Of a DNA stretch of 64,000 bases, positions 5,503 to 61,704 are shown piece after piece. Each line of letters starts with the position of its first letter. Positions within the stretch are counted from its first letter, which is position 1. The DNA lies in contig CAZNDM010000087.1 in assembly GCA_964571845.1 (NCBI GenBank), positions 16,376 through 80,375 of the forward strand, read 5' to 3'. This DNA is from an uncultured bacterium (GTDB taxonomy: Bacteria; Hydrothermota; Hydrothermia; B15-G9; WFZT01). A program made the position numbers and the translations under genes. The notes beneath the pieces were generated by a model that was not told the DNA's origin, did no database searches, and saw only the letters and a list, made by a program, of their open reading frames with translations.

Positions 5503-5675
5503 ATTTTTCCTCCTATGCGGTTTATTTTAATGCTTTCCACACATTTCTTTCAAATTCTGGTATTACCTTAATTTCGCATTCCACCCTCACATTCCATGCT
5601 TTATCCTTCAAAAAGTCAAATCCCGGTTACCAGATTGCAATAAATCCACACCTGCCTTAGATTTTGTAAAAGGAG

Positions 5676-6116
5676 GTGGTCAAGATGAAGTGGGTAACCC
5701 GTGAACATGTACATGTTGACAGAGTAGCGTGTCCCTGGCTTATCAAAAGATTCATAGATCCTGATGCCGTGTTTGAATTCGTCCCCAGGGACACCGATCC
5801 GTCCACAATTAAGGACGGAATTCCGTTTGACATGAAAGGTGTGGAGCTCGGACACCATGGAGACAAATGCTCTTTCGATGCATTTATGGAAAAATATAAA
5901 CTCGATGACCCGGCTCTCAAAAAAATTCAGCAGATCGTCAGAGAAGCTGACACACATGTTGAAAACCCATCACCTCTCGCAATCGCACTCAAAATTCTTG
6001 CAAAAGGTTACAGAATGATCTCCAGAGACGACCACGAAACCCTTGAAAAAGAGTTCCCCTTATACGACGCACTCTACGCTTACTTCAAAGCTGAGATGGA
6101 AAACCAAGCTCCCTGA
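5676..6116 (+). CDS. ChrB C-terminal-like (chromate-resistance 'Chrome_Resist' domain) small protein
   Basis: 146 aa. The motif HVDRVACPWLIKRFIDPDAVFEFV resembles the conserved ChrB domain core. An AGGAGG ribosome-binding site lies 6 nt upstream of the ATG. Confidence 0.45.
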   Translation: MVKMKWVTREHVHVDRVACPWLIKRFIDPDAVFEFVPRDTDPSTIKDGIPFDMKGVELGHHGDKCSFDAFMEKYKLDDPALKKIQQIVREADTHVENPSPLAIALKILAKGYRMISRDDHETLEKEFPLYDALYAYFKAEMENQAP

Positions 6117-6816
6117 TCCACTCTGTCAGAATACGATTGACCTTTTTGAACTTTTCTATCATCACCATGTGTCCTGCACTGACGAAGTAGGCTTTTGCAG
6201 CCGGTACAAGTCCGATCGTTCTTTCAATCTCCTTTCTGTCCAGTAATCTGTCCTTTGTGCCGTATATGAATAACACGGGAATTTTCAGATTTCTCAGAAT
6301 AAAAGATACATCGGATCCTGCGGCTTTCAAATCCGCTTCAAGCGATTCCCTGTTGCGGCTCAAAATCTGATTTGCAGTCTTCAAGCATCGTTCTACATGA
6401 TCCGGGGAATAAAACATATTTGAACAGAATTTTTCAGGACTCTCAGGAGGGTTTAATTCTGGAAGCCTTGCCGTGGAAGACACGAGGACAACTCCCCGCG
6501 GTCTATACCCCATTTCCACGGTTTTCAACACAATGTGTCCACCAAGAGAATGACCCATTAAGACTTTATCTCCCGGAGAACTTTTCAAAAACTCCGCCAC
6601 GATCAATGCGTAATCCTCAATATTCGTGGACGGCTTTCCTCCACTTTTGCCGTGACCGGGTAAATCTGGAGCTATTGTGGTGAATGGTAGATGTTCAATT
6701 TGATAGTACCAGTTTAAGTGATTCCCTCCTGCACCGTGAACCATAATTACATCAGGACCAACCCTCCGCCTGAAGCTGTAATAAATTTCAACCCCACGGA
6801 CACGGATAAGGGGCAT
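6085..6816 (-). CDS. Alpha/beta-fold hydrolase
   Basis: 243 aa. HGAGGN oxyanion region and the GHSLGG nucleophile elbow. It converges on the ChrB-like gene with a 32-nt overlap. Confidence 0.7.
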   Translation of the reverse strand: MPLIRVRGVEIYYSFRRRVGPDVIMVHGAGGNHLNWYYQIEHLPFTTIAPDLPGHGKSGGKPSTNIEDYALIVAEFLKSSPGDKVLMGHSLGGHIVLKTVEMGYRPRGVVLVSSTARLPELNPPESPEKFCSNMFYSPDHVERCLKTANQILSRNRESLEADLKAAGSDVSFILRNLKIPVLFIYGTKDRLLDRKEIERTIGLVPAAKAYFVSAGHMVMIEKFKKVNRILTEWIRELGFPSQL

Positions 6817-7004
6817 TACTCCATCTCTTCTTCCAGTCGTTCAATCTCCTTTTTGATTTTGGAGATCTTTTTATCTATGCTCTCTTCTTTTAGATGGGTC
6901 TTCTCCATAAACTCTTCCCCTGTCCATGGGGTAACGAATAACGCAACGAGTCCCCCAAAGAGAATTCCCAGTATAAACCAGAAAATCCCTTCCTTAACTC
7001 TCAT
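6816..7004 (-). CDS. Small membrane protein with one transmembrane helix and a charged coiled-coil tail
   Basis: 62 aa. Hydrophobic helix FWFILGILFGGLVALFV followed by a K/E-rich tail. There is a 1-nt overlap with the stop of the upstream hydrolase gene. Confidence 0.4.
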   Translation of the reverse strand: MRVKEGIFWFILGILFGGLVALFVTPWTGEEFMEKTHLKEESIDKKISKIKKEIERLEEEME

Positions 7005-7016
7005 AGTTTCACTCCT

Positions 7017-7376
7017 TTAAAAAGCGTTTTCGATGTGATCTATTTTAACATCGTCCTTGTTAAATTTTACACCAATTGCGTCAAATCTCAAATCGTGATT
7101 CTGGAATTCAGGATGTGATTCCAAGTAATACTCAGCAGTTTTTATAAGTTTCTGAATCTTAAATGGGCCTATGGTCTCAACCGGGTCAATTCCAAGGGCA
7201 TCTGAAGAAAAGCTTCTTACTTCAACAAAAACGAGCATCCCTTTTCTTTCAGCGATTATGTCAATTTCCCCGCCCCGCCATCGGAAATTCCGCTCGACAA
7301 TCCTGTAGCCTTTCTTTTTCAAGTAACTGGCAGCGACCTCTTCTCCCTTCCTGCCTTTACCGCTTCTGGAAGTCAT
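7017..7376 (-). CDS. yraN: YraN-family (UPF0102) endonuclease
   Basis: YraN core: GEEVAASYLKKKGYRIVERNFR...GEIDIIAER...VFVEVR. The ATG at 7374-7376 is verified and overlaps the stop of the upstream gene as ATGA. The track ORF extends to 7529 in frame but has no support upstream of this ATG. Confidence 0.7.
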   Translation of the reverse strand: MTSRSGKGRKGEEVAASYLKKKGYRIVERNFRWRGGEIDIIAERKGMLVFVEVRSFSSDALGIDPVETIGPFKIQKLIKTAEYYLESHPEFQNHDLRFDAIGVKFNKDDVKIDHIENAF

Positions 7377-8656
7377 TGCCGGGGACTTGAAACATCCTCT
7401 TCGGGCACATACCTTCTCCAGTCCGGTACACCGGGCTCCTCTTTGTTGTTTGAATAGATCAGCTTGAAATCTCCATCGTTTCGCACATCGACGAAGATAA
7501 ACTTCCAGTTGTGTGAGTAGTAATACCACTCCTCCCTGTCCGGCTTTGGAATATCCATTGATATTCTTTTGATCTCGTCCGGCTCTCCGTACTTGATCAG
7601 GATCCTTCCACGATCAGTGTAACGGCCCTTTTTCTTACCTGTTGAAAATTTATTGTCCGCCTCTTTTACCCTGAGAATAAATTCCTCGAGGAATTCGTTT
7701 TCAGGAGTTTCAGGATCTGGATCCCTCTGACTCCAGAATTTTTTCAGAAACAGGATACGCGCCTTTTCGTCTTTTATTTTTTTAAACTGCAAAATCTCTT
7801 TTGGTGAAGCAATATAATCTATGAACGAAACATAGTCCATTAGCTCTGGAGAGACTTCCCTTTCCCCGAATGTGAAATAAAAGATCCGCTCCGCCCTCAG
7901 GTGACTTCCGTCACTTAACTTCACAAAATCGAGAACGAGTTTATACTCCCCTTCGTCCTTCAGGTCATCAAGAAGCATTGCGCCGATACCAACATACTTA
8001 CCATCAATTTTCAGAATCTCCGGTCTATTCCTGACCATAGGAGTCCCGTCCCGTGAATAGATCAAAGAATTTAATACCACTGTGGCACTATCCTGAACAT
8101 AAATCTCATAGGTGTATAGAAGGGTATCCTTTTCCGGGCTGTAAGTACGGACGGGATTGGGGATAAAACTCATCCCGTACTTGAAGAAATTCGGTATCGT
8201 ATCTTCACTGATACTCCAGAGGAGCTCAATATCTGAAACTCCGGGAATCCCCTCGTGGGTTATCACAAAAGTGGTATCAACACTGGAGGAAGTGCCGGCG
8301 TTGAGATCACTGACTCCAAATCTGAGGTGATATTTTCCCGGTGCAAGCAAAAGGGTTATCTGATCAACCAGATAATTGCTGGATTTGACGACCTGTTTCC
8401 ATTTTCTTTTCAAAGGCTTTTTACCGGGAGATTCCAGCTCGAAAGAGTATTCAATCGCCTTTTTTCCGGTTGAATCTGCCTCAAAACTTCTGAGCTCAAC
8501 GAGGTAATAGAACTCGGCTCTCTTCACACTGTCCACCTCGTTGAAAACAGAGTAGTCCAGATAGAATCTGGGAACACCAGCAGGGGTAAGTACAGCCTGA
8601 GAATGCGGAAAACTAATTAATCCTGTCAAAAAGATCAGCTGGATAATAAAGCTCAT
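7373..8656 (-). CDS. GWxTD-like domain secreted protein, paralog 1
   Basis: Signal peptide MSFIIQLIFLTGLISFPHSQA. The ATG at 8654-8656 is verified; the track start at 8674 is a GTG. The C-terminal domain carries W..RDPDPETPENEF and GRYTDRGRILIKYGEPDEI (a GWxTD-type motif with the conserved TDRG and PDE). Residues match the paralog encoded immediately upstream. Confidence 0.6.
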   Translation of the reverse strand: MSFIIQLIFLTGLISFPHSQAVLTPAGVPRFYLDYSVFNEVDSVKRAEFYYLVELRSFEADSTGKKAIEYSFELESPGKKPLKRKWKQVVKSSNYLVDQITLLLAPGKYHLRFGVSDLNAGTSSSVDTTFVITHEGIPGVSDIELLWSISEDTIPNFFKYGMSFIPNPVRTYSPEKDTLLYTYEIYVQDSATVVLNSLIYSRDGTPMVRNRPEILKIDGKYVGIGAMLLDDLKDEGEYKLVLDFVKLSDGSHLRAERIFYFTFGEREVSPELMDYVSFIDYIASPKEILQFKKIKDEKARILFLKKFWSQRDPDPETPENEFLEEFILRVKEADNKFSTGKKKGRYTDRGRILIKYGEPDEIKRISMDIPKPDREEWYYYSHNWKFIFVDVRNDGDFKLIYSNNKEEPGVPDWRRYVPEEDVSSPRQ

Positions 8657-9740
8657 AATCTCCAAAACCTCCACGATCTACAAAGATTATTGTCAAATTC
8701 CTGTCATAATAATACCACACCTGATAGGGAAGTGCATTCACATCAAATGGATGACTATCTATCTCGTCAGGTGGACCGAGCTTTATATAAACATGTCCCC
8801 TGTCAGTCAACGAACCGAGCATTCTGCCTATTGAGAAGTTCTTATTCGCATATGTCACCCTTTCGACAAACTCCTCCATCAATTCATTCTCAGGTGTTCC
8901 CGGAGTGGGATCGTGCTTTTTCCAGAATTCCTTCCAGAGGTTCATCTTCAGGGAATCAGGCGCCCTCTCAATCCTCCTGACTTCACTGTATGGTGCGATG
9001 TAAATAAGTGCAGGGATATAATTGTCGAGATTCCCGACAAGGATACTTCCACCCTTCCTGTATATAAAACGCGCCTTTCTCTCAAATTTTACTCCGTCAA
9101 CTGTAATTTTGAACCCCGTCGTGTACTCCCCTCGCGCAAGTGTGTCTGGCATGCTGAACTTTACAACAAAATTACCCCCACCCTTTCTCTCGATAATGGG
9201 AGAGAGCACGACCCCTTTAACGGGGACATCGAACCCCCGCTGATCCTCCATTAATTTTAAGGTTACCTCTATCTTCGAAGGGTCCGGGATCACCCTGAAC
9301 AGAAATGCCACGGTATCACCTTCAAAAACCGGATACCCTTCAACAGGGATTGGGTCTCCAAGAAAAATCTTATTTTTCATGTAATCCCTTAGATCGTACT
9401 TCCACTCTTTCTCAAATACTTCCTCACCTGTTATGGAGTTTGAAATCTTAAGTAAGGCTTTAAATTTCTTCCTCGTCGGGATTTTAAAACTTCTTTTGAT
9501 TATTTTCCGCAAAGAACCGCCCTTCTTGAACTTCACATACCAGAAATTTCCAAAGATCACATCCTTACCTGACCTGATCTCTACTGCAACTTCTGCGGAT
9601 CCCCTGCCTCTGAAGGTGAGAAACTTCGAAGCAGGTAATGCCGCGACAACGGTTACTTCACACGAATCAGCGGAAACGGGCGAAATATAAAAAAATCCCT
9701 GTGGCTTAAGAAGAGAGGCGAGGATGAGGAGCCAGAACAA
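8613..9740 (-). CDS. GWxTD-like domain secreted protein, paralog 2
   Basis: 375 aa. The start at 9738-9740 is a TTG lying directly after the htpX stop, followed by the hydrophobic N-terminus MFWLLILASLL. The C-terminus has W..HDPTPGTPENEL and GSLTDRGHVYIKLGPPDEI. It overlaps paralog 1 by about 44 nt. Confidence 0.55.
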   Translation of the reverse strand: MFWLLILASLLKPQGFFYISPVSADSCEVTVVAALPASKFLTFRGRGSAEVAVEIRSGKDVIFGNFWYVKFKKGGSLRKIIKRSFKIPTRKKFKALLKISNSITGEEVFEKEWKYDLRDYMKNKIFLGDPIPVEGYPVFEGDTVAFLFRVIPDPSKIEVTLKLMEDQRGFDVPVKGVVLSPIIERKGGGNFVVKFSMPDTLARGEYTTGFKITVDGVKFERKARFIYRKGGSILVGNLDNYIPALIYIAPYSEVRRIERAPDSLKMNLWKEFWKKHDPTPGTPENELMEEFVERVTYANKNFSIGRMLGSLTDRGHVYIKLGPPDEIDSHPFDVNALPYQVWYYYDRNLTIIFVDRGGFGDYELYYPADLFDRIN

Positions 9741-10601
9741 TCAGATCACCCCCATATTACGAGCCATGGCTTCGAGCCTTTTAATCCTTTCTTCAATGGG
9801 TGGATGTGTTGAAAACAGGGATGCGATGCCGCCACCTCTGAAAGGTGTTACAATAAAGAGGTGTGCAGTCGCCGGATTAGCTTCAAGTGGAAGTTTTTGT
9901 GCGCCATAGGCAAGTTTTTTAAGAGCGCTTGCGAGGGCAAGGGGATCACGGGATATTCTGGCTCCCGTGGCATCAGCAAGGTACTCACGGGATCTCGATA
10001 TGGCAAGCTGGATGATCGTGGCTGCAATTGGCGCAAGAATAGAAACGAGCAGAGCAACTATCATATTGCTCCCTCTGTCTTCGTCATCACCTCCGAAACT
10101 ACCAAAGATCGCTGCCCATCTCGCCATGTATGCAAGATAGGTGATGGCACCTGCAATCGTTGCAGTAACAGTCATTATCAATACATCCCTGTTTCGGATG
10201 TGTGAAATCTCGTGCGCAAGCACACCCCTCAGCTCACGAGGAGTTAGAAGATTCAATATACCCCTTGTAACAGCCACAGCAGCGTGTCCCGGACCTCTAC
10301 CAGTTGCAAATGCATTGGGATGGTCAGTGGGAATGATATACACCCTTGGCTTCGGTATCCCTGCAGCTCTGGCAAGCTCTTCAACCATTGCGTGTAGCTC
10401 AGGAGCCTCAGAAGGGCTTACCTCTCTGGCTCTGTACATTGCGAGAACTATCCTGTCACTCCACCAGTAGGACACAAAGTTCATAACCCCGGCAAGGATC
10501 AGCGCCACGGTCATTCCACTTTTCCCACCAACGAGTCCCCCTATCCAGACGAGGAGAACCGTTAAAAGTGCAAGTAAAACATAAGTTTTCAGCTTCGACA
10601 T
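9741..10601 (-). CDS. htpX: Zinc metalloprotease HtpX (M48 family)
   Basis: 286 aa. Two N-terminal transmembrane helices and the HEISH zinc motif ([11 protein letters not shown]). The ATG at 10599-10601 is verified, with a GGGAGGTG ribosome-binding site. Confidence 0.85.
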
Positions 10602-10650
10602 AATTTACACCTCCCTGGTTTCACTAATTAATAATTATACCCCCATTAAG

Positions 10651-10679
10651 TTGTCAAGTCCTGCTGTGTGGTTAATAAT
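10651..10679 (+). promoter_or_regulatory. Sigma-70-like promoter: TTGTCA, 17-nt spacer, AATAAT, upstream of the dehydrogenase gene
   Basis: TTGTCA at 10651-10656, a 17-nt spacer, and AATAAT at 10674-10679. The AGGAGG ribosome-binding site is at 10691-10696. Confidence 0.4.
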
Positions 10680-10703
10680 TTTCCAAAAATAGGAGGTCAC
10701 AAT

Positions 10704-11822
10704 ATGGCCAAATACAGGATTGCGCTTCTACCAGGTGATGGTATTGGAAAGGATGTCATGGATGCAGCGGAGATCGTTCTCCAGAAAATTGATCTTGATG
10801 CCGAATATGTTTACGGTGATATTGGCTGGGAATTCTGGAAAAAAGAGGGTAATCCTCTACCAGATAGAACACTTGAACTCCTGAGAAATTCAACATGCGC
10901 ACTTTTTGGTGCAATTACATCAAAGCCAAAGGAAGAAGCTCAGAAAGAGCTTGCACCTGAACTCCAGGGAAAAGGATACGAATACTTCAGTCCAATCGTT
11001 AGATTGAGACAGGAGTTCGATCTTTACATAAATCTGAGGCCTGCAAAGGCTTTTCCAGGCAATCCCTTAAATTTCAGAGATGATATTGACCTCGTTATTT
11101 TCAGAGAGAACACTGAAGGGATGTATGCAGGTGTGGAGTTTCATCCACTTCCTCAGGAGGTCAAGGATGTACTTCTGAAACACCATCCAAAGATGAAAAG
11201 ATTTGAAAAAGTGCCCAACGACGAGATTGCACTCTCGACGAGGATAATGACCAAAAAGGGCTGCTACAGAATTGTTAAAGCAGCTTTTGAGTATGCGAGA
11301 CAGCACGGGAGGAAATCCGTTACACTCGTTGAAAAACCGAATGTTTTGAGGGAAACTGGCGGATTGATCCTCAGAATAGCGCGTGAAATTGCAAAAGAGT
11401 ACCCTGACATCGAATACAGGGAAGCCAATGTGGATGCCATGGCAATGTGGCTTGTCAAAAACCCGCAGGATTATGATGTTCTGGTGGCAGAAAATCTCTT
11501 TGGAGACATTATATCCGACCTGGCGGCTCAACTGGTCGGTGGACTCGGCTTTGCTTCAGCGGGCAACATAGGAGACAACTTTGCAGTGTTTGAACCCACA
11601 CACGGTTCTGCTCCAAAATACGCAGGCCAGTACAAAGTCAATCCAATGGCGATGCTACTCGCAGTTAAACTCATGCTCGAATGGCTTGGAGAAAAGGAGA
11701 AGGCAGAGAGACTTGAGAACGCAATAGCAGAGGTGATAAAAGAGGGTAAAGTCAGGACATACGACATGGGTGGTAATTCATCCACCCTCGATGTAGCAAG
11801 AGCTGTAGCAGAGAGGCTTTAG
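10704..11822 (+). CDS. icd: Isocitrate/isopropylmalate dehydrogenase family protein, probably NAD(P)-dependent isocitrate dehydrogenase
   Basis: The protein begins MAKYRIALLPGDGIGKDV and ends with the C-terminal substrate/metal region typical of the IDH/IMDH fold. The ATG at 10704 follows the AGGAGG site; the track start at 10668 lies upstream of that ribosome-binding site. Confidence 0.7.
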   Translation: MAKYRIALLPGDGIGKDVMDAAEIVLQKIDLDAEYVYGDIGWEFWKKEGNPLPDRTLELLRNSTCALFGAITSKPKEEAQKELAPELQGKGYEYFSPIVRLRQEFDLYINLRPAKAFPGNPLNFRDDIDLVIFRENTEGMYAGVEFHPLPQEVKDVLLKHHPKMKRFEKVPNDEIALSTRIMTKKGCYRIVKAAFEYARQHGRKSVTLVEKPNVLRETGGLILRIAREIAKEYPDIEYREANVDAMAMWLVKNPQDYDVLVAENLFGDIISDLAAQLVGGLGFASAGNIGDNFAVFEPTHGSAPKYAGQYKVNPMAMLLAVKLMLEWLGEKEKAERLENAIAEVIKEGKVRTYDMGGNSSTLDVARAVAERL

Positions 11823-12360: not shown

Positions 12361-14724
12361 TTAAAAGGCTTCTTCAAAGTTGTTAGGTTCCTCAAAGCGC
12401 TCCCGTTGCTTTTTGTACATGTTATAACTGTATTGAACACTCAACGAAACCATTAAAGGATCTCGACTGAAACTCTTTCTGGCGTAATAATCGGGACCTT
12501 CGGAAAAATATTCCCATTTGAAACCACCGTCAATGTTTTGCAGTCTAAGTGAGAGCGAGAGATTTCTCCCTATTTTCTTCCTCAATCCAAGATCAACGGT
12601 GTGGAATCCTGCTCTTTCTCCCTGCAAAGTGGCAACAGGGCTCCTGTAGCGGAAAACGACCTGCAATCTCACATCTCCTCGAAGATCAAGCTCATTTATC
12701 ATCCGCACACTCCATGAAACGCTTCGGTTCTCGTATGTTCTACCAGCAAGGGTGCCTTTTATGTAATATCTGTACATGTCAAAAGACCAGTTGACTGAAA
12801 AATTGCTAAAAAGATCCATGTTTATAAACGCCTCCACGCCTGTTCTGTAACCTGTGCCCGCATTACCGAATGTTTCAATGAACACATCCTGCGAAAGTGG
12901 TATGGTTATACGCTCAATATCGTCGTGAATGGTTTTATGATAGATGGATGCCGAAATAAATCCCCTCAGAACAGGATATTTAAAACTCGCCTCGTAACTG
13001 TCAATGTACACCGGTTTCAAATCGGGATTCCCCTTGCGTATGGTGTGAGGATCCACCCACACTCTAAAAGGTGCGATCATCCAGCCCCGGGGACGCCTGA
13101 TCCTCCTCGTGTAAGAAAACATCACCTGAGTTATATCTCCCATGGAAATGTGAAGGGAAGGGAAAAGGTCAGAAGTTTCCATGCTGAAGGTCTCCCCTGT
13201 CCTGAGGTCCTTTATCTCCCTTTTTTCAATTTCACCTCTCAATCCTGCTTGAAATCCAATTGCTCTCACACTGCCGCTCAAAAGTGAATAAACGGAATGA
13301 ATTTCCCTCTTTTGACTGTAATTTATGTCATAGGTGGTGTCTCTCACAAAGGTTGAAACTGTGGTATCGTATCTGTAGTATTCGGATAAGTCTTCCCTGT
13401 ACCTGAACTTACTCTGTGATCCGATCTCAAATTTCCACTTTTCTGAAAACGGTCTTTCATAGTTAATTTTAAAATCAACCCTGTACGAGGGACCGCCTCC
13501 CGATACCTTCCTCCCATACACGGGTGTGCCGTCGAAAAGTTTTTCAAGATAATGGGTTTCAATGTCTCTGCTTCCTCTGCCGTAACTCATGTCAGCTGAG
13601 AGTTTGTGCATGGGTGAGAACCTGTGAGTGTATCCGGCAAAGACTCCCCAGATGGGATGCTGGAGGTCAAATGTTTCCACTGTCTTTGTGTCAGCATAAT
13701 CGTTTTCGTTAATTCTCGACATTCCCCATTTGAAATAATTGCCGCCGATACTCAGCATTCCTGATCTGGAAACCTTAAAATTCAGGCCACCGCGGAAACT
13801 TATGGGATTTCTTGAAAACTCTGAGTTACCGGTTGAGCTTATGACAACAGTGTCAGAATCGCTGAAATACTCTTTGAATACGGTTATTTCGCCGGGAAAG
13901 TTCCTCTTTGACGCGTTCAGGGAGAGAAAGATATCCAGTTTATCGGTCCTTTTCGTATAAAGGAGGTTTGCTCCATAGTTATCGTATCTCCCAGCGGATA
14001 CGGAGATTGTGTAACCGGAGCGTCTTTTCTTCCCTTTTTTCAACACGACATTGATGATACCCGCCTCACCTTCGGGATCATACTTTGCCGAAGGGTTTGT
14101 AATGATCTCTATTTTGTCTATCATGGCAGCTGGCATCTGCTGCAGTACCTCTGAAGGATCAGCAAGTGTGGGTCTGCCATCGATCAGGAGGGTAAAACTG
14201 GAGCTGCCCCTGAGTTTGACATTGCCTTCAATGTCAACCTCAATAGAGGGGACATTTTTCAGCACATCAACTGCGGTTATGGCTTCAGATGAGAGCTCCT
14301 TTCCCACCTGAACCACCTTTCTGTCGATCTTGAATGTGATCTGAGGAGCACGGGCTTTGACCTCAACAGGTTTTGCTTCAATATACGCAGGTTTCAGGTA
14401 AATTTTGCCAAGTCTCACGAAAGATTTGCTCGGTGTCAGCTTCACCGGCTTTATCACCTTCTTTTTGTATCCCAGGAAATCAACCTCGATATAGTACTCG
14501 CCAAACGGGAGATTTCTGAGGGCAAATCTTCCAAGAGAGTCGGTTGCTATTCCTCCGGCTTTAGTACTATCTGGCAGACGATAGGCAATAACCGTGGCAT
14601 ACTCAAGGGGCGTCCCGGTCTCGGAATCCAGCACCTTACCCACGATTAGCGTTTTAAACTTTCCTCCGGGACGCATGGAAAATAGAAAAAACGGTAATAA
14701 ACAAAACAACAAAATCCTCCTCAT
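12361..14724 (-). CDS. TonB-dependent outer-membrane receptor with an N-terminal carboxypeptidase-regulatory-like domain
   Basis: Signal peptide and a CarbopepD_reg-like domain (VGKVLDSETGTPLEYATVIAY...DSLGRFAL), followed by a plug and beta-barrel region. The C-terminal aromatic residue (EEAF) is typical of outer-membrane barrels. The ATG at 14722-14724 has a GGAGGTG ribosome-binding site; the track start at 14730 is a GTG. Confidence 0.75.
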   Translation of the reverse strand: MRRILLFCLLPFFLFSMRPGGKFKTLIVGKVLDSETGTPLEYATVIAYRLPDSTKAGGIATDSLGRFALRNLPFGEYYIEVDFLGYKKKVIKPVKLTPSKSFVRLGKIYLKPAYIEAKPVEVKARAPQITFKIDRKVVQVGKELSSEAITAVDVLKNVPSIEVDIEGNVKLRGSSSFTLLIDGRPTLADPSEVLQQMPAAMIDKIEIITNPSAKYDPEGEAGIINVVLKKGKKRRSGYTISVSAGRYDNYGANLLYTKRTDKLDIFLSLNASKRNFPGEITVFKEYFSDSDTVVISSTGNSEFSRNPISFRGGLNFKVSRSGMLSIGGNYFKWGMSRINENDYADTKTVETFDLQHPIWGVFAGYTHRFSPMHKLSADMSYGRGSRDIETHYLEKLFDGTPVYGRKVSGGGPSYRVDFKINYERPFSEKWKFEIGSQSKFRYREDLSEYYRYDTTVSTFVRDTTYDINYSQKREIHSVYSLLSGSVRAIGFQAGLRGEIEKREIKDLRTGETFSMETSDLFPSLHISMGDITQVMFSYTRRIRRPRGWMIAPFRVWVDPHTIRKGNPDLKPVYIDSYEASFKYPVLRGFISASIYHKTIHDDIERITIPLSQDVFIETFGNAGTGYRTGVEAFINMDLFSNFSVNWSFDMYRYYIKGTLAGRTYENRSVSWSVRMINELDLRGDVRLQVVFRYRSPVATLQGERAGFHTVDLGLRKKIGRNLSLSLRLQNIDGGFKWEYFSEGPDYYARKSFSRDPLMVSLSVQYSYNMYKKQRERFEEPNNFEEAF

Positions 14725-14820
14725 AGGCACCTCCAGATTTTATTAGATTCGGGAACCTTCAGAATAGTTCCCATCTGATTTAAAAACCCGGGAATAGGTC
14801 TTGCTCATCGTCCGGAGAGA

Positions 14821-25114: not shown

Positions 25115-27805
25115 TCAAGTGTTTCTCTCTTCTCTTACATACATTTCGTAAAGGAACCTTGAAGGCTCCTGATAGTACCTGAATCTCTTCTTGGGGTAAG
25201 TAAGGTAAAGGGTCTCAGAAGCCCTTGTCAAAGCCACATAGCATAGTCTCCTCTCTTCTTCAAGTCCTGATTTTTCAGCGACTGATCTGAAGAGCGGAAA
25301 AACTCCCTCCACGAGTCCCACAAGGAACACGACCGGGAATTCAAGACCTTTTGCCTGGTGGATTGTGATAATCTGGACGCCTCCGACTGACCGGAATTCC
25401 TCTCCAAGATGCTGCATCATCGCCACATGACTCAAAAATTCCCTTACTTCGCCTTTTTTAAAAGATCCTGCAATACCAAGAAGCTCGTTTATGTTGTCCT
25501 TCTCCACGAGTCTCGACGGAGTGTCCTTCTCTTCAAGATACTTCATGTAACCCGTAACATCATAAACTTCCTCAAGGAGCTCCTGTGGAGAGCGCACCCT
25601 CAACTGTTCCGGTGTAAAAGAATTGAGATACTCCCAGAATCTCTCAAGAGTTTTGAGCTGTTCCTCTGTAAACTTCTTTGAAAATGTGGGTTTCCCGGTC
25701 TTTGAAAAATACCTGACAGCCGTTTTTGCGTCCTTCGGATGCCATCTGAGGAATTTTATCAACATACTCTGCAGATCAGAGGCGGACCCTTTGCCTGTGA
25801 GGAATTTTAAAAAGCCAATTGAAGCCTTTATCTCTTCCCTCTCATAAAAGCCGCCGATACCAAGAACATTAAACGGAATTTTCTTTTTGCTAAAAACTTC
25901 CTCAAACGGGCGCGAAAGTGAGTTTAATCGGATAAGCACAGCAATGTCATCAAAGCTCCTCCCCCTTTCCCGCTCTTCGAGGATCTTCTCGGCAACAAAC
26001 TCCGCCTCGTCTATCTCATTTCTTGCAGCGTAAAACTTTATGGACTCCTGTCCGGACTCCCTGAGGGGTATTACAAGCTTGTCTATGCGGTCCTCATTAT
26101 GAGAAATTAAAGTATTTGCCACATTCAGGATCTCATCCGGGGAGCGGAAGTTCTGGGTCAACCTTACTTCTCTATGATCTGGATAATACTTCCTGAAATC
26201 CATGAGGAATTTACTCGACGCTCCCCGAAATCCGTAGATCGATTGATCGTCGTCACCTGTAACAAACAGGTTTTTATGCCTTGAAGATAGTATCTGCATC
26301 AGCACAAATTGTCCCCTATTTATGTCCTGAAATTCGTCAACGAGGATGTACCGGAATCTCTCGCTAAAAAGCTCTTTGATGTCATCGTACTGCCTCAGAA
26401 GTCTCACTGACAGAAAGATAAGATCATCGAGATCGATAAAACCGTTAAAGAAGAGTTCTTTCTGGTACTTTTCATAGGCTTCAGCGACTTCCCGTCGCCA
26501 CTTGTGTTTCACATGTTCGAGCAAGTATTCCGGAGAAATGAGGTTCCCCTTGTATCTCGAAATTTCTCTCAAAATGGCACGAGCCTTTTCTTTTGACCTT
26601 ATACCCGTTGCCTTTTCAAAAAGCTCTTCCTGAGCATCCCGGGTTATGAGCTGGAATTCCGGTGGGTATCCCAGCCTTTCGATACCGTATGAGACTATTT
26701 TTCGCCCGAGATAATGGAATGTCCCCGTCCACAAATTTTTTGTGTTTCCCTCACCAATCAATTTTTCCACTCTGTCTTTCATTTCACCTGCAGCTTTACC
26801 TGTAAAGGTTACGGCAAGGATGTTTTCCGGTGGCACACCTTTCTCGTGGATCAGGTAGGCAATCCTGTGGACAAGTGTGGTCGTCTTACCTGTCCCCGCT
26901 CCACCGATGAGGAGAAAGTAACCGTCCCCGTTGACAACAGCTTCCCGCTGTTCTTCTGTGAGACCTTCGAGAATAGGTGAGGACTTTTTTCTGACATGGA
27001 CTGTCTTCAGTGAAAGCTCACCCCCGCCTTTTCGGACATAATCCTGCAATGCCTGCTTCATCTCTGAGGCAGTCCTGTATCTCTCTGAGGGCACCTTCCT
27101 CAAAGCTTTTTTTATTATCTCAAATAACTGGGGGGTCATCCTCGCGGGTTTTTTTAACTTCCCTTTGAATATCTGATTTCTCAAGTCCTCAATGGTTTCT
27201 GCGAAAAATGGAGGGTAGCCGGCAATAAGTTCGTAAAGAACGCAGGCAACGGACCAGATATCTGACTCTTTCCTCATCTTTCCACTCCAGGCTTCTGGTG
27301 CCATGTAGATAGGGGTACCTGCCATGGAGAAACTCAAACTGCTCGAGAGTATAACCGCAAGTCCAAAATCTGTGAGCTTTACCTCCCCGTCTTTTGTTAT
27401 CATTATGTTTTCGGGCTTTATATCCCTGTGAAGCACACCCCGCGAATGGGCATAGGATAAAGCTTCAAGAACATCGTTGATAATGGAAATTGCGCGGGTC
27501 TCATCAATTGGAGCCTCATTTTCAATCACATCTCTTAAGGACTGACCATCAACATACTCCATGACAATGGCAAGTTTACCTTCAATAAGCTCGGCAGTGT
27601 AAAATCTGACGATATTCGGGTGTTCAAGAGAGGCGAGGAGTTGAGCCTCTCTTTTGAGCATTTCTATGTCCCGCTCACGGGTTCTTGAGACCTTCAGTGC
27701 AAATTTTTTCTCCGTTATTGTGTCAAAAACGAGAAAAACATCGGCAAACTGCCCCCCTCCTATCCAGGATTCAACCCTGTATTTGCCGAGATTCTTTCTT
27801 ATCAT
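25115..27805 (-). CDS. Fusion protein: N-terminal Hanks-type Ser/Thr protein kinase domain and C-terminal UvrD/PcrA-like superfamily-1 DNA helicase
   Basis: 896 aa. Kinase motifs sit in residues about 1-265: glycine loop WIGGGQFADV, VAIK-like ALKV, HRDIKPEN, DFGLA and the APE loop GTPIYMAPE. Helicase motifs sit in residues about 285-896: Walker A GGAGTGKTTTL, motifs II-VI (LVDEFQD, FVTGDDDQSIY), and a UvrD C-terminus CYVALTRA. There is no transmembrane segment between the two domains. The ATG at 27803-27805 is verified. Confidence 0.8.
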   Translation of the reverse strand: MIRKNLGKYRVESWIGGGQFADVFLVFDTITEKKFALKVSRTRERDIEMLKREAQLLASLEHPNIVRFYTAELIEGKLAIVMEYVDGQSLRDVIENEAPIDETRAISIINDVLEALSYAHSRGVLHRDIKPENIMITKDGEVKLTDFGLAVILSSSLSFSMAGTPIYMAPEAWSGKMRKESDIWSVACVLYELIAGYPPFFAETIEDLRNQIFKGKLKKPARMTPQLFEIIKKALRKVPSERYRTASEMKQALQDYVRKGGGELSLKTVHVRKKSSPILEGLTEEQREAVVNGDGYFLLIGGAGTGKTTTLVHRIAYLIHEKGVPPENILAVTFTGKAAGEMKDRVEKLIGEGNTKNLWTGTFHYLGRKIVSYGIERLGYPPEFQLITRDAQEELFEKATGIRSKEKARAILREISRYKGNLISPEYLLEHVKHKWRREVAEAYEKYQKELFFNGFIDLDDLIFLSVRLLRQYDDIKELFSERFRYILVDEFQDINRGQFVLMQILSSRHKNLFVTGDDDQSIYGFRGASSKFLMDFRKYYPDHREVRLTQNFRSPDEILNVANTLISHNEDRIDKLVIPLRESGQESIKFYAARNEIDEAEFVAEKILEERERGRSFDDIAVLIRLNSLSRPFEEVFSKKKIPFNVLGIGGFYEREEIKASIGFLKFLTGKGSASDLQSMLIKFLRWHPKDAKTAVRYFSKTGKPTFSKKFTEEQLKTLERFWEYLNSFTPEQLRVRSPQELLEEVYDVTGYMKYLEEKDTPSRLVEKDNINELLGIAGSFKKGEVREFLSHVAMMQHLGEEFRSVGGVQIITIHQAKGLEFPVVFLVGLVEGVFPLFRSVAEKSGLEEERRLCYVALTRASETLYLTYPKKRFRYYQEPSRFLYEMYVREERNT

Positions 27806-27814
27806 GTGTTAAAA

Positions 27815-29839
27815 TTAATACTTCATCCTTTCTATGACAATCCAGGAATCCCGCTGACGCGCCATCCCCTCAACGATCTTTCTGAAGTCCTTGTAAAGTG
27901 ATTTGTCGTATATTCCTCCCTTCCTTCTGACCTCATCACTGTAATGAACAGTATCTTTCGAGGAGTAAACGAGTGATTTGAACTCCATAAACTTCACCTG
28001 TCCGGAAAAACCCTCGGGGATGTGTCTTACCCTGAATCCGGGAGGAAGCTTGATCACAATATCTTTGATACTCCTGTAGTTTCTTTCAAAAAATAGAGGA
28101 TTCAACCTGAATGTGGCTCCGACCTTCTCTGCCGTGTAGTCTGAAAGATCCGGCATCTTCAGGAGAATGAGGTTGTCTGCGACTATCGCGTATCCGGGAA
28201 CACGGTAAAAGAGAGTTAACTTCGGTGGTATCGTCAAATCTCCAAGGTCAGAAAGCCTGAAAGAGTCAAGTGTTATGCCAGGAGCCCAGTTGAGATTCTG
28301 CTCGAGTATCTTCTGTAGCTCAATTTTTCTGAATTTCTTGAGCGCCCTCACAGTAGCTTCGTCATAACCCCGAAACAGCACATTATCTTCAATAACAAGG
28401 TCCCCTGTTCTTGTAACAGCGATATTCATAAACTCAATCTGACCCTCTCTCTCCACCGGCGTGAAGGGGATATATGTTTCATCACCGTTGAGTGATATAC
28501 CATGTGTCCCCTGAAATTCGGGCCTTATGTAACCAAATGGCATTCTGTCATTGACAGGATCAAGATAAATTGTATCGAGCCTTACAACCATTCCTGTAAA
28601 CAGGGATAGGTTCCAGTTCTCAGGCAAAAACCAGGAGCTTTTTGAAACTGTTAGCACAAGGTCAGCCGGTATCCCGACTTTCCTGTAAAGTGAATATAGT
28701 AAGAACGCCTTATCAACTTCGCTTCCAGAAAATTTATTGAGAATAAGATCAGGGGATTTCGGGAAAATGCTGTAACTTTCACCATCAACAGGTATCCTCT
28801 TTATGTCCTGAGCAACGAATCTATAGATAGAAAACAGCGTGTCCTCACGACTCTGTGCCTTTGAGAGAAGGCCATCAAGAAGACTGTCGGGTTTAAAGCT
28901 GTCCACAAGGGAATCAATGTAGGTTCTCAGGCTATGGATATCCTCCCCGGTTTTCAACCCACATGTAAAGGCTGGAAGAATGTAGTAAAGAGGCGGCATG
29001 TAGGGTTCCTCAATATAACCTTTGTGATCCCTGACTATGAAAGAGTTTCCTTCACTCTCAATTCCCCCGGTGTTCCTCGCTGTGATAAGCAAAAGGTCTT
29101 TGTTCCCCTCAATTTCGAGCTTTTCATAGTATGTCGGCTCTCTGTCACCCATCAAAATCCTTCTCAATGGGGGATGTTTGGGGTCAAATTTACCGGTGAT
29201 TTTTATCTCGTAATCAAGCACATTTCCTGGTGAGCCTTCAGGAATGGCAAATTTTACCTGATGGAGATCATCATACTCAGGATATCTCGAAAAAACAGAT
29301 GCATCCTCAATGGCATTGTCCATAATGGAGACTACTCGATCGTCATGTGTTACTGTTCTTGCAAATACGATTTCTCCCCTTTCAAATGAGCTCATATACT
29401 TGAAGACTCTGTTTGCTGCTCTCTTACCCCGTTCCTTCAGAATCCTGATAATTCTCCTTTCCGTGTAAGAATAGGAACTATCAGTATTCAGCGTAAACTT
29501 CTTGATCACATAAACATTGACATATCCTGCCATGGGGTAAAGAGAGTCAACAGGAACTTTCAGGGCTTTAAGAAGCAAAGAATCGTCTATGTCGGAGATA
29601 TTTTCCCACATGTCACCGGGTCTTCTTCTGGACGACTCTATGCTCAAAACTTCTGTTCGTGCAACGGCGATTCTGCCGTGTGGAGTCGAGATATAAACAG
29701 AATCCTTTCCAATTTCCAGAACAGAACCGTTTATTTCCTCACCGTTTTTTAGATACACAATATCTCTTGTGAGATTCCGTGGCGCCTTTCCCATACCCCA
29801 TAGTGAAAACGCCGTTAAAAGGACAAGAAGGTATTTCAT
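27815..29839 (-). CDS. DUF3857/DUF3858-type transglutaminase-like secreted protein, catalytically dead paralog
   Basis: Signal peptide MKYLLVLLTAFSLWG. The ATG at 29837-29839 is verified, with a GGAGG ribosome-binding site; the track start at 29857 is a TTG. The region aligns with the active paralog, but the catalytic Cys is replaced (GSEVDKAFLLYSLYRKVGI versus GDCTDKSILFSTLLRSVGI) and the His is replaced (FTGMVVRLD versus FQGNHAITEI). Confidence 0.6.
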   Translation of the reverse strand: MKYLLVLLTAFSLWGMGKAPRNLTRDIVYLKNGEEINGSVLEIGKDSVYISTPHGRIAVARTEVLSIESSRRRPGDMWENISDIDDSLLLKALKVPVDSLYPMAGYVNVYVIKKFTLNTDSSYSYTERRIIRILKERGKRAANRVFKYMSSFERGEIVFARTVTHDDRVVSIMDNAIEDASVFSRYPEYDDLHQVKFAIPEGSPGNVLDYEIKITGKFDPKHPPLRRILMGDREPTYYEKLEIEGNKDLLLITARNTGGIESEGNSFIVRDHKGYIEEPYMPPLYYILPAFTCGLKTGEDIHSLRTYIDSLVDSFKPDSLLDGLLSKAQSREDTLFSIYRFVAQDIKRIPVDGESYSIFPKSPDLILNKFSGSEVDKAFLLYSLYRKVGIPADLVLTVSKSSWFLPENWNLSLFTGMVVRLDTIYLDPVNDRMPFGYIRPEFQGTHGISLNGDETYIPFTPVEREGQIEFMNIAVTRTGDLVIEDNVLFRGYDEATVRALKKFRKIELQKILEQNLNWAPGITLDSFRLSDLGDLTIPPKLTLFYRVPGYAIVADNLILLKMPDLSDYTAEKVGATFRLNPLFFERNYRSIKDIVIKLPPGFRVRHIPEGFSGQVKFMEFKSLVYSSKDTVHYSDEVRRKGGIYDKSLYKDFRKIVEGMARQRDSWIVIERMKY

Positions 29840-29840
29840 C

Positions 29841-31895
29841 TTATCTGCCTCCTTCAAAAATTACGGGTTTTCTCATGTGTTTCAAAAGTTTGAGCAGATC
29901 TTTTTTGTAAGTCTCATAATCTTCCAGCGGCACGATTCGATCCCATCTTCTGAAAACATCGTGAAATTCGATACTCTTTGCACCGTCACTTTTGAAGTAC
30001 GCAACATAAGAGAAGTGTTTATTTTTAATATCAATGGAATCTGGCAGGTATTTCAGCTTTAACTTTTCAAATTCGATGTAAAAATCGTGTGAGACTTTGT
30101 AAGATGTCCGATACACGATATCGTAGTGCCTGTCTTTGACAGTGATTTCGGGGAATCTGTACCTGTTTTTCAGATCAGGAAGCTCAAGAAGATAAAGGTC
30201 TCCAATGTTTTTTAAATATCCGGGAATTTCGAAAACTATCTTCAGGTAAAATTGTCTGGAAAGGTCGTACAGGGGTCCAAGCTCAAAGGAGATAAGCTTT
30301 GAGCCGGGTGCAGTCATCTGGATCATTTCTTCCATACGGTTTTTTCGTTCTTCTTCCTTCACATGTTGCCAGAACCACCGAACGCCAGCCTCAAAATCGC
30401 CCGTGTATTCACCGAGAAACTCGACTCTCGTGCTACCATCGGGTTTGATCTTCAACTTATATGTGTATTTTCTCCAGTTGTGTTCAGGTGGAGGTACCTT
30501 GATAAAGGAAATTTTCCTGAGCTGTGCATTGAGTGCCCAGACACCGTGATCAGCAGACCAGAAATAGGGATAACGGCTTGTTGAACCCGTGGCATCGAGA
30601 TAAAAATCCCTTCCATCTCTCGTAACAATCTCAGTAATGGCATGATTCCCCTGAAAAGACGGAACATCCACGAGGAAAGTTCCGGCATCGTTGGTCTCAA
30701 TGTAAACGGGGTAACCCATTATTCCAACAGAACGAAGCAGGGTTGAAAATAATATTGATTTATCCGTACAGTCCCCGTATCCCTTTTTCAGAGTCTCTGA
30801 TGCAGGGTGTCCGGAGACACCAGACGAGGCTCCACCTTTAATGGAAATGTAACGAATGTTCTGCTGGACCCAGTAGTATATCCTGGCTATGGAGTCGTCG
30901 AGGCTCGTCGCCCCTTTCACGATGCTGTCGGCAAGTGCTTTGATCTCAGGTGTAATGACCATCCTCTTCTTCTGGAATTTCGCATACCAATCGTAAAGAT
31001 AATCCCACGACTTCTGATTCGTAACAGCTAACATGGGGATAACATCAGGTAAAGGTGGCATAACAGGCTCATCAACCACTGGATCCACTGTATCCATTGA
31101 GAATTTGTAAAATTTGTAGGGACCGACCACTCTCTCCTCGTACTTCACACGGGAAGGATCAGTATTCCTGACGAGATATTTAAAAAACTCATTCTCCGGA
31201 AGTTTAAATGTTACCTCTGAATGAAGTACGGGTTTTTGCCCTCCGAAAAACCATCTTTCTGAAAAGACCTTTTTGTCCCAGGGATTGAAGATGTGATACT
31301 CGTAAACATACTCCACAATATCCCCGACCTCTGCGCCGGGAATAGAAAAACTCATGACCTTACTTTTGCCAAAAAATTCAAGTCCGGATTTGGGTTTTGT
31401 AATTTTAACATTTTTTGGATCGAGATAAATAACCCTGCCATCAGGTTTTATACATCTTGCAGCGAGAAGGCGTGCTTTTAGCATATCTTCATAAATGTAG
31501 ATTCTTACATCCGCCCAGTCTCTTGCGTCATCCTTCATTATGAGACCCTGGAAATGGTACCTATTGTACTGGGTAGAATCGGGCTCCATTGAGAAGAAAC
31601 CCTGATCAAGAAGCACGACACCACTGGCGTCAGGATACAGACGGCGAGCCTCTTTTGCCTTCTCAAGTACCTTTTCAGGAGACTCAAGTCTGTACTTAAC
31701 AGGGAGATACGCCCTCTCTTCGCCTTCAAAGATGATCTTTTTTACATCGAGACGGCTGACCACCGTGTCGTCCAGAATGTAGGCACCACCCTTCAGTTCA
31801 AGACGATGTGTCTTTATCACCCTTCCACCAAAAAGTTCGACCTTGTGGGCAAAAACCCACGAAAATAGTGCTATAGCAACTAAAAACTTCTTCAT
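29841..31895 (-). CDS. DUF3857/DUF3858-type transglutaminase-like secreted protein with an intact Cys-His-Asp triad
   Basis: 684 aa. Signal peptide MKKFLVAIALFSWVFA. Transglutaminase-like core GYGDCTDKSILFSTLLRSVGI...GNHAITEI...YLDAT. The ATG at 31893-31895 is verified, with a GGAGG ribosome-binding site. Confidence 0.65.
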   Translation of the reverse strand: MKKFLVAIALFSWVFAHKVELFGGRVIKTHRLELKGGAYILDDTVVSRLDVKKIIFEGEERAYLPVKYRLESPEKVLEKAKEARRLYPDASGVVLLDQGFFSMEPDSTQYNRYHFQGLIMKDDARDWADVRIYIYEDMLKARLLAARCIKPDGRVIYLDPKNVKITKPKSGLEFFGKSKVMSFSIPGAEVGDIVEYVYEYHIFNPWDKKVFSERWFFGGQKPVLHSEVTFKLPENEFFKYLVRNTDPSRVKYEERVVGPYKFYKFSMDTVDPVVDEPVMPPLPDVIPMLAVTNQKSWDYLYDWYAKFQKKRMVITPEIKALADSIVKGATSLDDSIARIYYWVQQNIRYISIKGGASSGVSGHPASETLKKGYGDCTDKSILFSTLLRSVGIMGYPVYIETNDAGTFLVDVPSFQGNHAITEIVTRDGRDFYLDATGSTSRYPYFWSADHGVWALNAQLRKISFIKVPPPEHNWRKYTYKLKIKPDGSTRVEFLGEYTGDFEAGVRWFWQHVKEEERKNRMEEMIQMTAPGSKLISFELGPLYDLSRQFYLKIVFEIPGYLKNIGDLYLLELPDLKNRYRFPEITVKDRHYDIVYRTSYKVSHDFYIEFEKLKLKYLPDSIDIKNKHFSYVAYFKSDGAKSIEFHDVFRRWDRIVPLEDYETYKKDLLKLLKHMRKPVIFEGGR

Positions 31896-61199: not shown

Positions 61200-61704
61200 G
61201 ATTTCGCACCTTTTCAATCATCTTTCTATGCGTTGAAAAAGGTATTTCAGGCAGAGAATCGAGCGGGAAAAATCTGACATCAGCAGCATCGTCTCCAGCC
61301 TTTGGTTCTCCGGCAATCCACCTGAGCCTGTAACCAATGCTTATTATCCATCTGTACTTCAAACTTGACTGGCCATATATCCCGACAATTTCTTCAACTT
61401 CACCCTTTATTCCTGTCTCCTCAAGGAGTTCTCTTGTGGCAGTTTCTTCTGGCTGTTCTCCAATTTCCATAAAACCGGATGGAAGTGCCCACATACCTTC
61501 AGCTGGCGGCACACCCCTTTTCACGAGAAGGATCTCATTTTTATCATTTAAAACCACGCACGCAACCACGGGCACAGGATTTTCCCAGATTATCATGTCA
61601 CATGTGGGGCAATACAGCCTTTTCTCACCGTCGTGCAACTTCTTCTCAAGTCTGGTGCCACACAGAGGGCAATATTTGAACGGATAAAAGGGCTTTATTT
61701 CCAT
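61174..61704 (-). CDS. NUDIX hydrolase with an N-terminal C4 zinc ribbon
   Basis: Zinc ribbon CPLCGTRL...CPTCD, and Nudix box GMWALPSGFMEIGEQPEETATRELLEETGI. The ATG at 61702-61704 is verified and overlaps the sppA stop (TGATG). Confidence 0.75.
   Translation of the reverse strand: MEIKPFYPFKYCPLCGTRLEKKLHDGEKRLYCPTCDMIIWENPVPVVACVVLNDKNEILLVKRGVPPAEGMWALPSGFMEIGEQPEETATRELLEETGIKGEVEEIVGIYGQSSLKYRWIISIGYRLRWIAGEPKAGDDAADVRFFPLDSLPEIPFSTHRKMIEKVRNLIRGRKHP

Follow-up and report, generated by a model that had tools for sequence, protein, structure and literature searches.

Conserved coupling of a tandem pair of GWxTD-domain proteins to htpX in an uncultured Hydrothermota bacterium and across candidate division WOR-3

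The DNA analysed here, referred to as the window, is a stretch of 64,000 nucleotides (nt) from an uncultured bacterium of the Hydrothermota (GenBank assembly GCA_964571845.1, contig CAZNDM010000087.1, positions 16,376 to 80,375). Two adjacent genes on its minus strand, gwA and gwB, encode diverged paralogs of the GWxTD family, and the pair lies directly behind htpX, the gene of a membrane protease. The order htpX-gwA-gwB is conserved across the candidate division WOR-3, in which the organism is placed, and a role of the two proteins as an exported accessory pair of the cell envelope is tentatively proposed.

The locus and its two GWxTD proteins

The features of the locus, in the order of transcription, are as follows.

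9741..10601, minus strand: htpX, first gene of the operon, encoding an M48 membrane zinc metalloprotease of 286 amino acids (aa) with a HEISH motif
9746..9753, minus strand: Shine-Dalgarno-like GGGGGTGA, read from the sequence, within the 3' end of htpX and 5 nt before the TTG of gwA
8613..9740, minus strand: gwA, encoding the A-type GWxTD protein of 375 aa, with a TTG start at 9740
9669..9740, minus strand: predicted signal peptide of GwA, MFWLLILASLLKPQGFFYISPVSA, followed by D (site VSA/D)
8613..8656, minus strand: overlap of gwA and gwB, exactly 44 nt, in different frames
7373..8656, minus strand: gwB, encoding the B-type GWxTD protein of 427 aa, with an ATG start at 8656
8594..8656, minus strand: predicted signal peptide of GwB, MSFIIQLIFLTGLISFPHSQA, followed by V (site SQA/V)
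7017..7376, minus strand: yraN (UPF0102), encoding a predicted PD-(D/E)xK nuclease of 119 aa, with an ATG at 7376
6816..7004, minus strand: gene of a YtxH-like small membrane protein of 62 aa, 12 nt past yraN
6085..6816, minus strand: gene of an alpha/beta-fold hydrolase of 243 aa, closing the co-directional block, with a 1-nt overlap with the YtxH-like gene

Both GwA and GwB exceed the cutoffs of the two family models, TIGR04514 (GWxTD_dom; GwA 99 bits over aa 244-345, GwB 95.4 bits, cutoff 28) and PF20094 (39.6 and 48.3 bits, respectively, cutoff 26.9), and they are ordinary members of a family that is catalogued without an assigned function. Comparison of the two by BLASTP gives 37% identity across 177 C-terminal residues (E 2e-28). 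Since this alignment covers the conserved motifs that the proteins share, the similarity is not a matter of low complexity. A profile of GwA built from 21 orthologs and a profile of GwB built from 17 sequences were aligned by hhalign over 351 columns with a probability of 100% and an E value of 7e-55, which indicates that the whole architecture is common to both proteins.

As seen in the same alignment, GwA is without about 20 columns that hold the family-wide FxKxG....PNP segment of the second beta-sandwich. GwB has the canonical length and the full-length architecture of the family, and GwA matches the B profile over its whole length save for this gap. The motif that names the family, GWxTDRG in the consensus, reads GRYTDRG...GEPDEI in GwB and GSLTDRG...GPPDEI in GwA. 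The G, T, D, RG and PDE are thus present in both, and the name-giving Trp is replaced by Arg in GwB and by Ser in GwA. Among the GwA orthologs, the T and D of this motif also vary.

An earlier sequence-only reading had described the two genes as adjacent GWxTD paralogs overlapping by about 44 nt, with htpX upstream and with yraN linked downstream by an ATGA overlap, and all of this is borne out. Of the lengths given there, 375 aa was right and 428 aa was not, as gwB encodes 427 aa both by sequence and by public gene calls. The similarity had been placed in the C-terminal domains; the motifs are indeed there, but the relationship is not confined to them. With both proteins far above the family cutoff and the motifs lying within a significant alignment, the observation stands.

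The genes are packed closely. The TTG of gwA is the codon right after the TGA of htpX, with the frame unchanged, and the TGA of gwB (7373-7375) overlaps the ATG of yraN as ATGA. An HtpX-GwA fusion or stop-codon read-through, which the single TGA between two genes of the same frame might bring to mind, was rejected, because close relatives keep the stop and because in other clades the two reading frames differ and the genes overlap by 4 nt as ATGA. In four of these relatives (L004-L007; surveyed loci are cited by L numbers where needed), the junction sequence atgggggtg is kept and the stop there is TGA or TAG. Gene calls on three public contigs with identical proteins give the same boundaries for 375 and 427 aa. 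Public data hold a protein identical to GwB (P0001), and 188 homologs of GwB were found.

The neighbours are genuine by family hidden Markov models. HtpX scores 386.6 bits with the NCBIfam equivalog NF002826 (cutoff 369) and is matched by the Pfam family Peptidase_M48 with E 2.7e-40. YraN exceeds NF009150 (95.9 versus 81 bits), TIGR00252 (71.4 versus 69.05) and PF02021 (91.6 versus 23.6). The YtxH-like protein reaches 24.1 bits with PF12732, under the cutoff of 37.5; its gene is also called on the public contigs and has a homolog in L005. The hydrolase matches Pfam Abhydrolase_1 and Abhydrolase_6 and is kept downstream in L004-L006. Upstream of htpX lies a divergent gene of the isocitrate/isopropylmalate dehydrogenase family (10668-11822, plus strand), so that the block is a compact co-directional unit of six genes. 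Consensus scans of 5600-11000 for promoters and terminators gave no excess over shuffled expectation.

The N-termini of both GwA and GwB consist of a hydrophobic stretch closing in an A-x-A-like site. Such hydrophobic N-termini with small-x-small sites are conserved among the orthologs of GwA and, for GwB, in the family, and residues 1-12 of GwB have a predicted local distance difference test (pLDDT) value below 50 in the AlphaFold2 model. Judged from these sequence features, the two proteins are probably exported by signal peptides. Lipoprotein status was rejected for both: GwB has no Cys in its first 30 residues, and Cys27 of GwA (ADSC) is unfit for a lipobox and missing in the L004 ortholog. 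Status as cargo of the type IX secretion system (T9SS) was also rejected, as Pfam finds the GWxTD domain alone in GwA and GwB.

Conservation of the gene order and genomic neighbourhoods

A scan of genomes, with each species represented once, yielded 79 related loci, and the nearest of these belong to metagenome-assembled genomes of WOR-3 and Hydrothermota. Open reading frames were called in every locus and then searched with the proteins of the window. In 31 WOR-3/Hydrothermota loci beyond the window's own, a GwA-like gene is followed by a GwB-like gene, and in all 31 the first gene is best matched to GwA and the second to GwB (for example 120/82 versus 84/192 at about 30% identity). Because this assignment holds in every pair locus, even where identity falls to about 30%, the gene was duplicated before these lineages diverged, and the order of the copies is fixed.

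The htpX gene stands directly upstream of the pair in 21 of the 28 loci with upstream sequence at hand, and it is also kept down to about 30% identity. The htpX-gwA junctions measure 0, -4 or +3 nt or are overlaps of 14-29 nt, and gwA and gwB overlap or abut in all WOR-3 pair loci. At the seven exceptions, the upstream place is held by an Asp/Asn-tRNA ligase, a metallo-beta-lactamase-fold protein, a sigma-54 response regulator, a DUF5362 protein, a weak BNR-repeat-like match or, on the opposite strand, a von Willebrand factor A (VWA) protein. The genes that flank the trio vary between clades. Directly after gwB, yraN is found in 12 WOR-3 loci only; its place is taken by MurJ-ScpB in Hydrothermus-type genomes and elsewhere by an ATP-binding cassette (ABC) ATPase, GcvT, a pyridoxal phosphate enzyme or CheW. 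Therefore, the conserved unit is htpX-gwA-gwB, not gwB-yraN, and conserved coupling of these three genes is observed across WOR-3. Compared to the GWxTD family at large, this lineage differs in the replaced Trp, in a GwA that is shorter and without the PNP loop, and in the placement of the pair in an htpX operon, which is seen in WOR-3 only.

The sequence-only reading had stressed the translational coupling to the YraN nuclease and had suggested a survey of the order htpX-GWxTD-GWxTD-yraN. The first three genes of that order proved lasting, but the link to yraN is shallow and the stress on it was misplaced. A YraN-centred explanation, in which the nuclease and the pair would share a function, was rejected for the same reason, since the adjacency is limited to part of WOR-3. 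In Ignavibacteriales, yraN stands three genes downstream of a GWxTD gene, behind rnhB. In the Escherichia coli cluster lpoA-yraN-diaA-dolP (MG1655), yraN shares 43 nt with the 3' end of lpoA, the gene of an exported envelope protein, as yraN of the window shares 4 nt with gwB; however, LpoA is unrelated to GWxTD, and the parallel shows only that yraN behind an envelope gene is ordinary.

The lasting trio raises the possibility that GwA and GwB serve HtpX alone, as its periplasmic modulator or adaptor. The HflK/HflC paralog pair assembles on FtsH and gates access to membrane substrates. Similarly, in WOR-3 two diverged paralogs stand side by side in fixed order, the genetic layout of hflK-hflC, and are tied to a membrane-bound zinc protease of membrane-protein quality control while their surroundings change. 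Nevertheless, such a dedicated function is unlikely. A/B pairs and single GWxTD genes outside WOR-3 never adjoin htpX, so the ancestral function of the family cannot be HtpX-specific, and seven WOR-3 pair loci are themselves without htpX. In E. coli, HtpX-type M48 proteases have minimal periplasmic exposure, and by analogy HtpX of the window may offer little surface to periplasmic partners. GWxTD proteins also contain no SPFH/Band-7 domain by Pfam, the protease is of the M48 rather than the M41 type, and cleavable-type signal peptides are predicted here where HflK and HflC have N-terminal anchors.

At the other extreme, the two paralogs could be neighbours by chance, with no joint function and perhaps with unrelated roles, in a housekeeping operon that is compact like the small, gene-dense genome around it. 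The block from htpX through gwA, gwB, yraN and the YtxH-like gene to the hydrolase is tightly packed, gene overlaps are common in compact genomes, and the genes behind the pair, among them yraN and the hydrolase, differ from clade to clade. This explanation is improbable, as the three-gene core persists to about 30% identity amid reshuffled surroundings and the A-then-B order also occurs in other phyla. Such pairs were found outside WOR-3 in L083 and L084, and also in 23 of 80 metagenome loci, and L090 holds an independent, recent duplication with 44% identity. That two neighbouring copies have been kept again and again suggests that the copies act together.

The family as a whole is large. 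A profile search of 1.84 billion representative proteins gave 21,005 clusters (50% identity) at E<=1e-3 and 5,742 at E<=1e-30; the best 150 of the 21,005 are all 414-487 aa long and matched end to end (profile positions 1-441). Named members come from WOR-3, Zixibacteria, Marinimicrobia, Coatesbacteria, Bacteroidota, Ignavibacteria, Melioribacteraceae, Kapaibacteria, Chlorobiota and Acidobacteriota. The range is thus wider than the Bacteroidota, Ignavibacteriota, Calditrichota and related candidate phyla named at first, as WOR-3/Hydrothermota, Zixibacteria, Marinimicrobia, Coatesbacteria and Acidobacteriota must be added. In Acidobacteriota chromosomes (L055-L073), several GWxTD paralogs of 540-600 aa exist per genome, often beside a 576-aa family with no Pfam match, VWA-related proteins and FG-GAP/ASPIC proteins. 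The context of this expansion is unlike that of lineages of the Fibrobacterota-Chlorobiota-Bacteroidota (FCB) superphylum.

Since a function could not be read from the fold, gene neighbourhoods in other lineages were surveyed. The largest group, Ignavibacteria/Ignavibacteriales, has the order Rce1-like gene, unknown gene, CdsA, RimO, GWxTD, Omp85/POTRA, UbiA, RNase HII and YraN. In loci of the Ignavibacteria type, RimO is upstream in 28, and Omp85/POTRA is downstream in 14, immediately so in 13 and mostly with an overlap of 4-19 nt; independent gene calls agree. In Coatesbacteria, the GWxTD gene is followed by a 214-aa protein, in which an N-terminal lipobox-like LVAC motif can be seen by eye, and then by BamD (TIGR03302, 118.8 bits versus a cutoff of 81.4). 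In other WOR-3 clades with a single GWxTD gene, this gene either has an overlap with lpxB (4 nt in L047 and in L050, 13 nt in L044) or is adjacent to a TonB-dependent-receptor-like outer-membrane protein (L037-39 and L042).

Exporter genes form a further context. Three distant lineages, including Zixibacteria, have the order TolC-like protein, membrane fusion protein adaptor, ABC ATPase, two MacB-type permeases, GWxTD-GWxTD and ABC-2 transporter, and two MacB-type permeases are directly upstream of pairs in nine further metagenome loci. The A-like then B-like pairs of L083 and L084 stand in the full exporter order. In L090, the order is TonB-dependent-receptor-like protein, 1179-aa protein, PorV/PorQ-family barrel, GWxTD-GWxTD, LpxL-like protein, GT9 heptosyltransferase, M23 peptidase and bactofilin. 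The large protein and the PorV-like barrel are shared by L088, a Bacteroidota contig.

Several proteins met in these surroundings are recorded in their own right. The large protein of L088 (2-2311) and L090 (1315-4854), about 1170 aa long and with no Pfam match, is encoded upstream of the PorV/PorQ-family barrel and the GWxTD genes, and the two distant lineages have 41% identity across its C-terminal 136 aa. Another protein with no Pfam match, of about 256 aa, with a signal peptide and rich in Gly and aromatic residues, occurs in L051, L053, L072, L074 and L078-L081 (Ignavibacteria, Chlorobiota and Kapaibacteria). In seven of the eight loci it is directly upstream of a second-type GWxTD gene, the exception being L053, where gene calling gave no GWxTD gene. 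A fusion protein resembling SucA (2-oxoglutarate dehydrogenase) comes next in six loci, and the 256-aa protein may be an outer-membrane barrel. Additionally, eight unrelated metagenome loci (L093-L097, L129, L130 and L147) have a gene of the isocitrate/isopropylmalate dehydrogenase family directly 3' of an A-type GWxTD gene and co-directional with it. The presence of this gene family there and near htpX of the window could be residual synteny or coincidence.

Domain architecture, conserved residues and fold

The canonical GWxTD protein has about 430-480 aa and consists of an export signal, two beta-sandwiches and a C-terminal domain. The corresponding parts of GwA and GwB are as follows.

8261..8566, minus strand: first beta-sandwich of GwB, aa 31-132, from AlphaFold2 secondary structure
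7874..8227, minus strand: second beta-sandwich of GwB, aa 144-261, carrying the family-wide SDIEL and PNP motifs
7451..7849, minus strand: C-terminal GWxTD alpha/beta domain of GwB, aa 270-402, with five helices and then a sheet of four strands
8706..9011, minus strand: core of the GWxTD domain of GwA, aa 244-345, the TIGR04514 envelope

The full-length AlphaFold2 model of GwB, built from 59 homologs, has a mean pLDDT of 90.8, with the hydrophobic residues 1-12 disordered. A model of the C-terminal 166 residues of GwB alone has a pLDDT of 91.7 and a predicted template-modelling score of 0.85. When this C-terminal model was searched with Foldseek, the top match was not significant in either the PDB (E 0.22, probability 0.10) or BFVD (E 0.038). 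Searches of PDB sequences and Pfam by sequence and by profile likewise gave nothing relevant beyond the family's own model. By eye, the C-terminal half of the domain (helix-GxP-strand, 'W-Y-Y') suggested a BamE/OsmE-like module. This candidate was rejected, because the hhalign probability is 0.2%, SmpA_OmlA of Pfam is not matched at E<=10, and the Foldseek match to OsmE (4dm5) has E 2.1 and a probability of 0.09.

With full-length GwB, Foldseek returned generic beta-sandwich matches (RbmA, transglutaminase C-terminal barrels and A2M-type domains), which brings in the possibility of secreted structural or matrix proteins. The two proteins would then be adhesin- or scaffold-like, as is RbmA of Vibrio, and their position behind htpX would reflect shared envelope-stress regulation only. 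The best structural matches are indeed chains of RbmA (4be6 and 4kkq, E 4e-10 to 3e-9), ahead of other beta-sandwich arrays; RbmA of Vibrio cholerae, a tandem fibronectin type III (FnIII) biofilm scaffold, also has two consecutive beta-sandwiches, and some members of the GWxTD family have weak matches to T9SS sorting domains (PF18962) and Y_Y_Y domains. A matrix role is nevertheless quite improbable. The similarity to RbmA is at the level of the generic fold (template-modelling scores of 0.2-0.4, root-mean-square deviation of about 11 A, 13% identity), RbmA has no GWxTD-like third domain, and no T9SS C-terminal domain is detectable by Pfam in GwA and GwB. Moreover, conservation is highest in the C-terminal domain and not in the sandwiches, and tight coupling to Omp85, LpxB and htpX is atypical of matrix proteins.

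Among 21 orthologs of GwA, the residues W269, F272, W273, D277, N285, E286, G315, Y318, G322, P324, D325, Y339, W342, Y344, F353, G360, Y362 and L364 are invariant. Across 59 diverse members of the family, the invariant or near-invariant residues are W, F, Y, G, P, D and E together with one Arg and one Ser, and no His, Cys or Lys is conserved. Such a set of aromatic, Gly, Pro and acidic residues argues for a binding module over an obvious enzyme. In GwB, the acidic part of this set comprises D312, E318-N319-E320 (the ENE of TPENE), D348, D360-E361 and D390.

That the GWxTD domain is instead an enzyme acting on an envelope polymer, a hydrolase or transferase using Asp/Glu with GwA as a degenerate regulatory copy, would agree with these acidic residues, with the lost PNP segment and variable T and D of GwA (as expected of an inactive partner) and with neighbouring genes for peptidoglycan or lipopolysaccharide (LPS) enzymes (LD-carboxypeptidase, M23 peptidase, LpxB and LpxL), but it is quite improbable, as no enzyme fold and no Pfam or PDB profile similarity was found, a conserved nucleophile or general base such as His, Cys or Lys is missing, and the acidic residues are mostly in loops beside prolines, a setting more usual for structural or metal-binding sites.

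A possible role in the outer membrane

The explanation preferred here is that GwA and GwB are an exported, jointly acting, non-catalytic accessory pair for outer-membrane biogenesis or envelope quality control; it is held tentatively, at somewhat less than an even chance. GwA and GwB would be anciently diverged exported paralogs, each composed of a signal peptide, two immunoglobulin/FnIII-like beta-sandwiches and a C-terminal alpha/beta GWxTD domain. They would be made from one transcript with htpX, with translational coupling. Their joint site of action would be the periplasm or the inner face of the outer membrane, and their working form would probably be an A/B hetero-oligomer. As non-enzymatic accessory or scaffold factors, they may bind an envelope ligand or partner by the conserved aromatic-acidic surface of the GWxTD domain and by the SDIEL/PNP site of the second sandwich. 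Candidate partners are an Omp85/Bam-type machine, LPS intermediates and exported substrates. HtpX serves in membrane-protein quality control and clears damaged membrane proteins; in WOR-3, the pair would be co-expressed with this protease. Export, heteromer formation, binding rather than catalysis and a function at the outer membrane are each inferred from the features described above.

The closest known systems resemble the pair only in part. GWxTD genes are coupled to Omp85/POTRA in Ignavibacteria and are near BamD in Coatesbacteria, which recalls Omp85 accessory factors of the BamD, BamE or TamB type, but GWxTD proteins have no sequence or fold relationship to BamE or other components of Bam and Tam. 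M48 proteases of outer-membrane quality control are known (BepA, YcaL and LoiP), and the neighbour in the window is also an M48 protease, but of the inner-membrane HtpX type and not BepA.

Several points weigh against the accessory pair. Linkage to htpX is seen in WOR-3 only and in none of 79 other metagenome loci, and the slight periplasmic exposure of E. coli HtpX implies, by analogy, that a direct partnership with periplasmic proteins is not obvious. In Marinimicrobia, the order is SMC-GWxTD-ROK, and many other loci have housekeeping neighbours, such as RimO, CdsA, the gene of the isocitrate/isopropylmalate dehydrogenase family, RlmN and SucA. About nine of 16 context types hold a gene of outer-membrane or envelope biogenesis within two genes, but the contexts were not chosen blindly, so this count is suggestive and not proof. 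Fold and profile searches back no specific known binding module. Also, a full-text literature search found no paper mentioning GWxTD, TIGR04514 or PF20094, in keeping with the earlier description of the family as little studied.

Other genes of the window concern the kind of envelope. An fn3/NIDO protein with a T9SS C-terminal sorting domain, a genuine T9SS cargo, is encoded at 53262-55412 (plus strand), and a TonB-dependent-receptor-like outer-membrane protein with a CarboxypepD_reg N-terminus at 12361-14730 (minus strand). These two indicate a diderm envelope of the FCB type with type IX secretion. Envelope and protein-turnover proteases are plentiful, among them a tricorn-like protease (33612-36359, plus strand; PD40 repeats, Tricorn_C1, PDZ and S41) and a long SppA (61704-63854, minus strand; S49, 716 aa). 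A second tandem pair of paralogs, DUF3857 proteins of about 680 aa each, is encoded at 27815-29857 and 29841-31895 (both minus strand) with a 17-nt overlap, and the upstream member also has a transglutaminase-like core. An open reading frame of 896 aa (25115-27805, minus strand) combines a Ser/Thr protein kinase (aa 9-249) with a complete UvrD/Rep-type helicase (aa 282-872), which is an unusual combination. Neither a tRNA gene nor an Rfam family at gathering threshold was found in the whole 64 kb.

To the initial observation of the pair, the analysis adds the htpX-gwA-gwB unit, an A/B pairing that recurs across phyla, a signature domain of no known fold and outer-membrane neighbours. Extended to the family, the accessory pair leads to a broader proposal, which is put forward as a doubtful one. 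In the FCB superphylum and in Acidobacteriota, GWxTD proteins might be a widespread, unrecognised accessory of outer-membrane biogenesis, typically an A/B heterodimer that docks on Omp85/Bam-type or LPS-assembly machinery by a C-terminal domain with no solved structural relative, and in WOR-3 this accessory might be wired to HtpX as an envelope quality-control operon. A large orphan family, present in most of the FCB superphylum and in Acidobacteriota, is made experimentally approachable by its first usable functional leads, namely the ancient A/B pair, the phylum-wide coupling to HtpX in WOR-3 and the genes for Omp85, BamD, lipid A, LPS and TolC-MacAB-type exporters alongside it elsewhere. 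If these leads are borne out, GWxTD proteins would represent a lineage-specific piece of outer-membrane assembly in organisms where the accessory factors of Bam, Lpt and Lol are poorly known.

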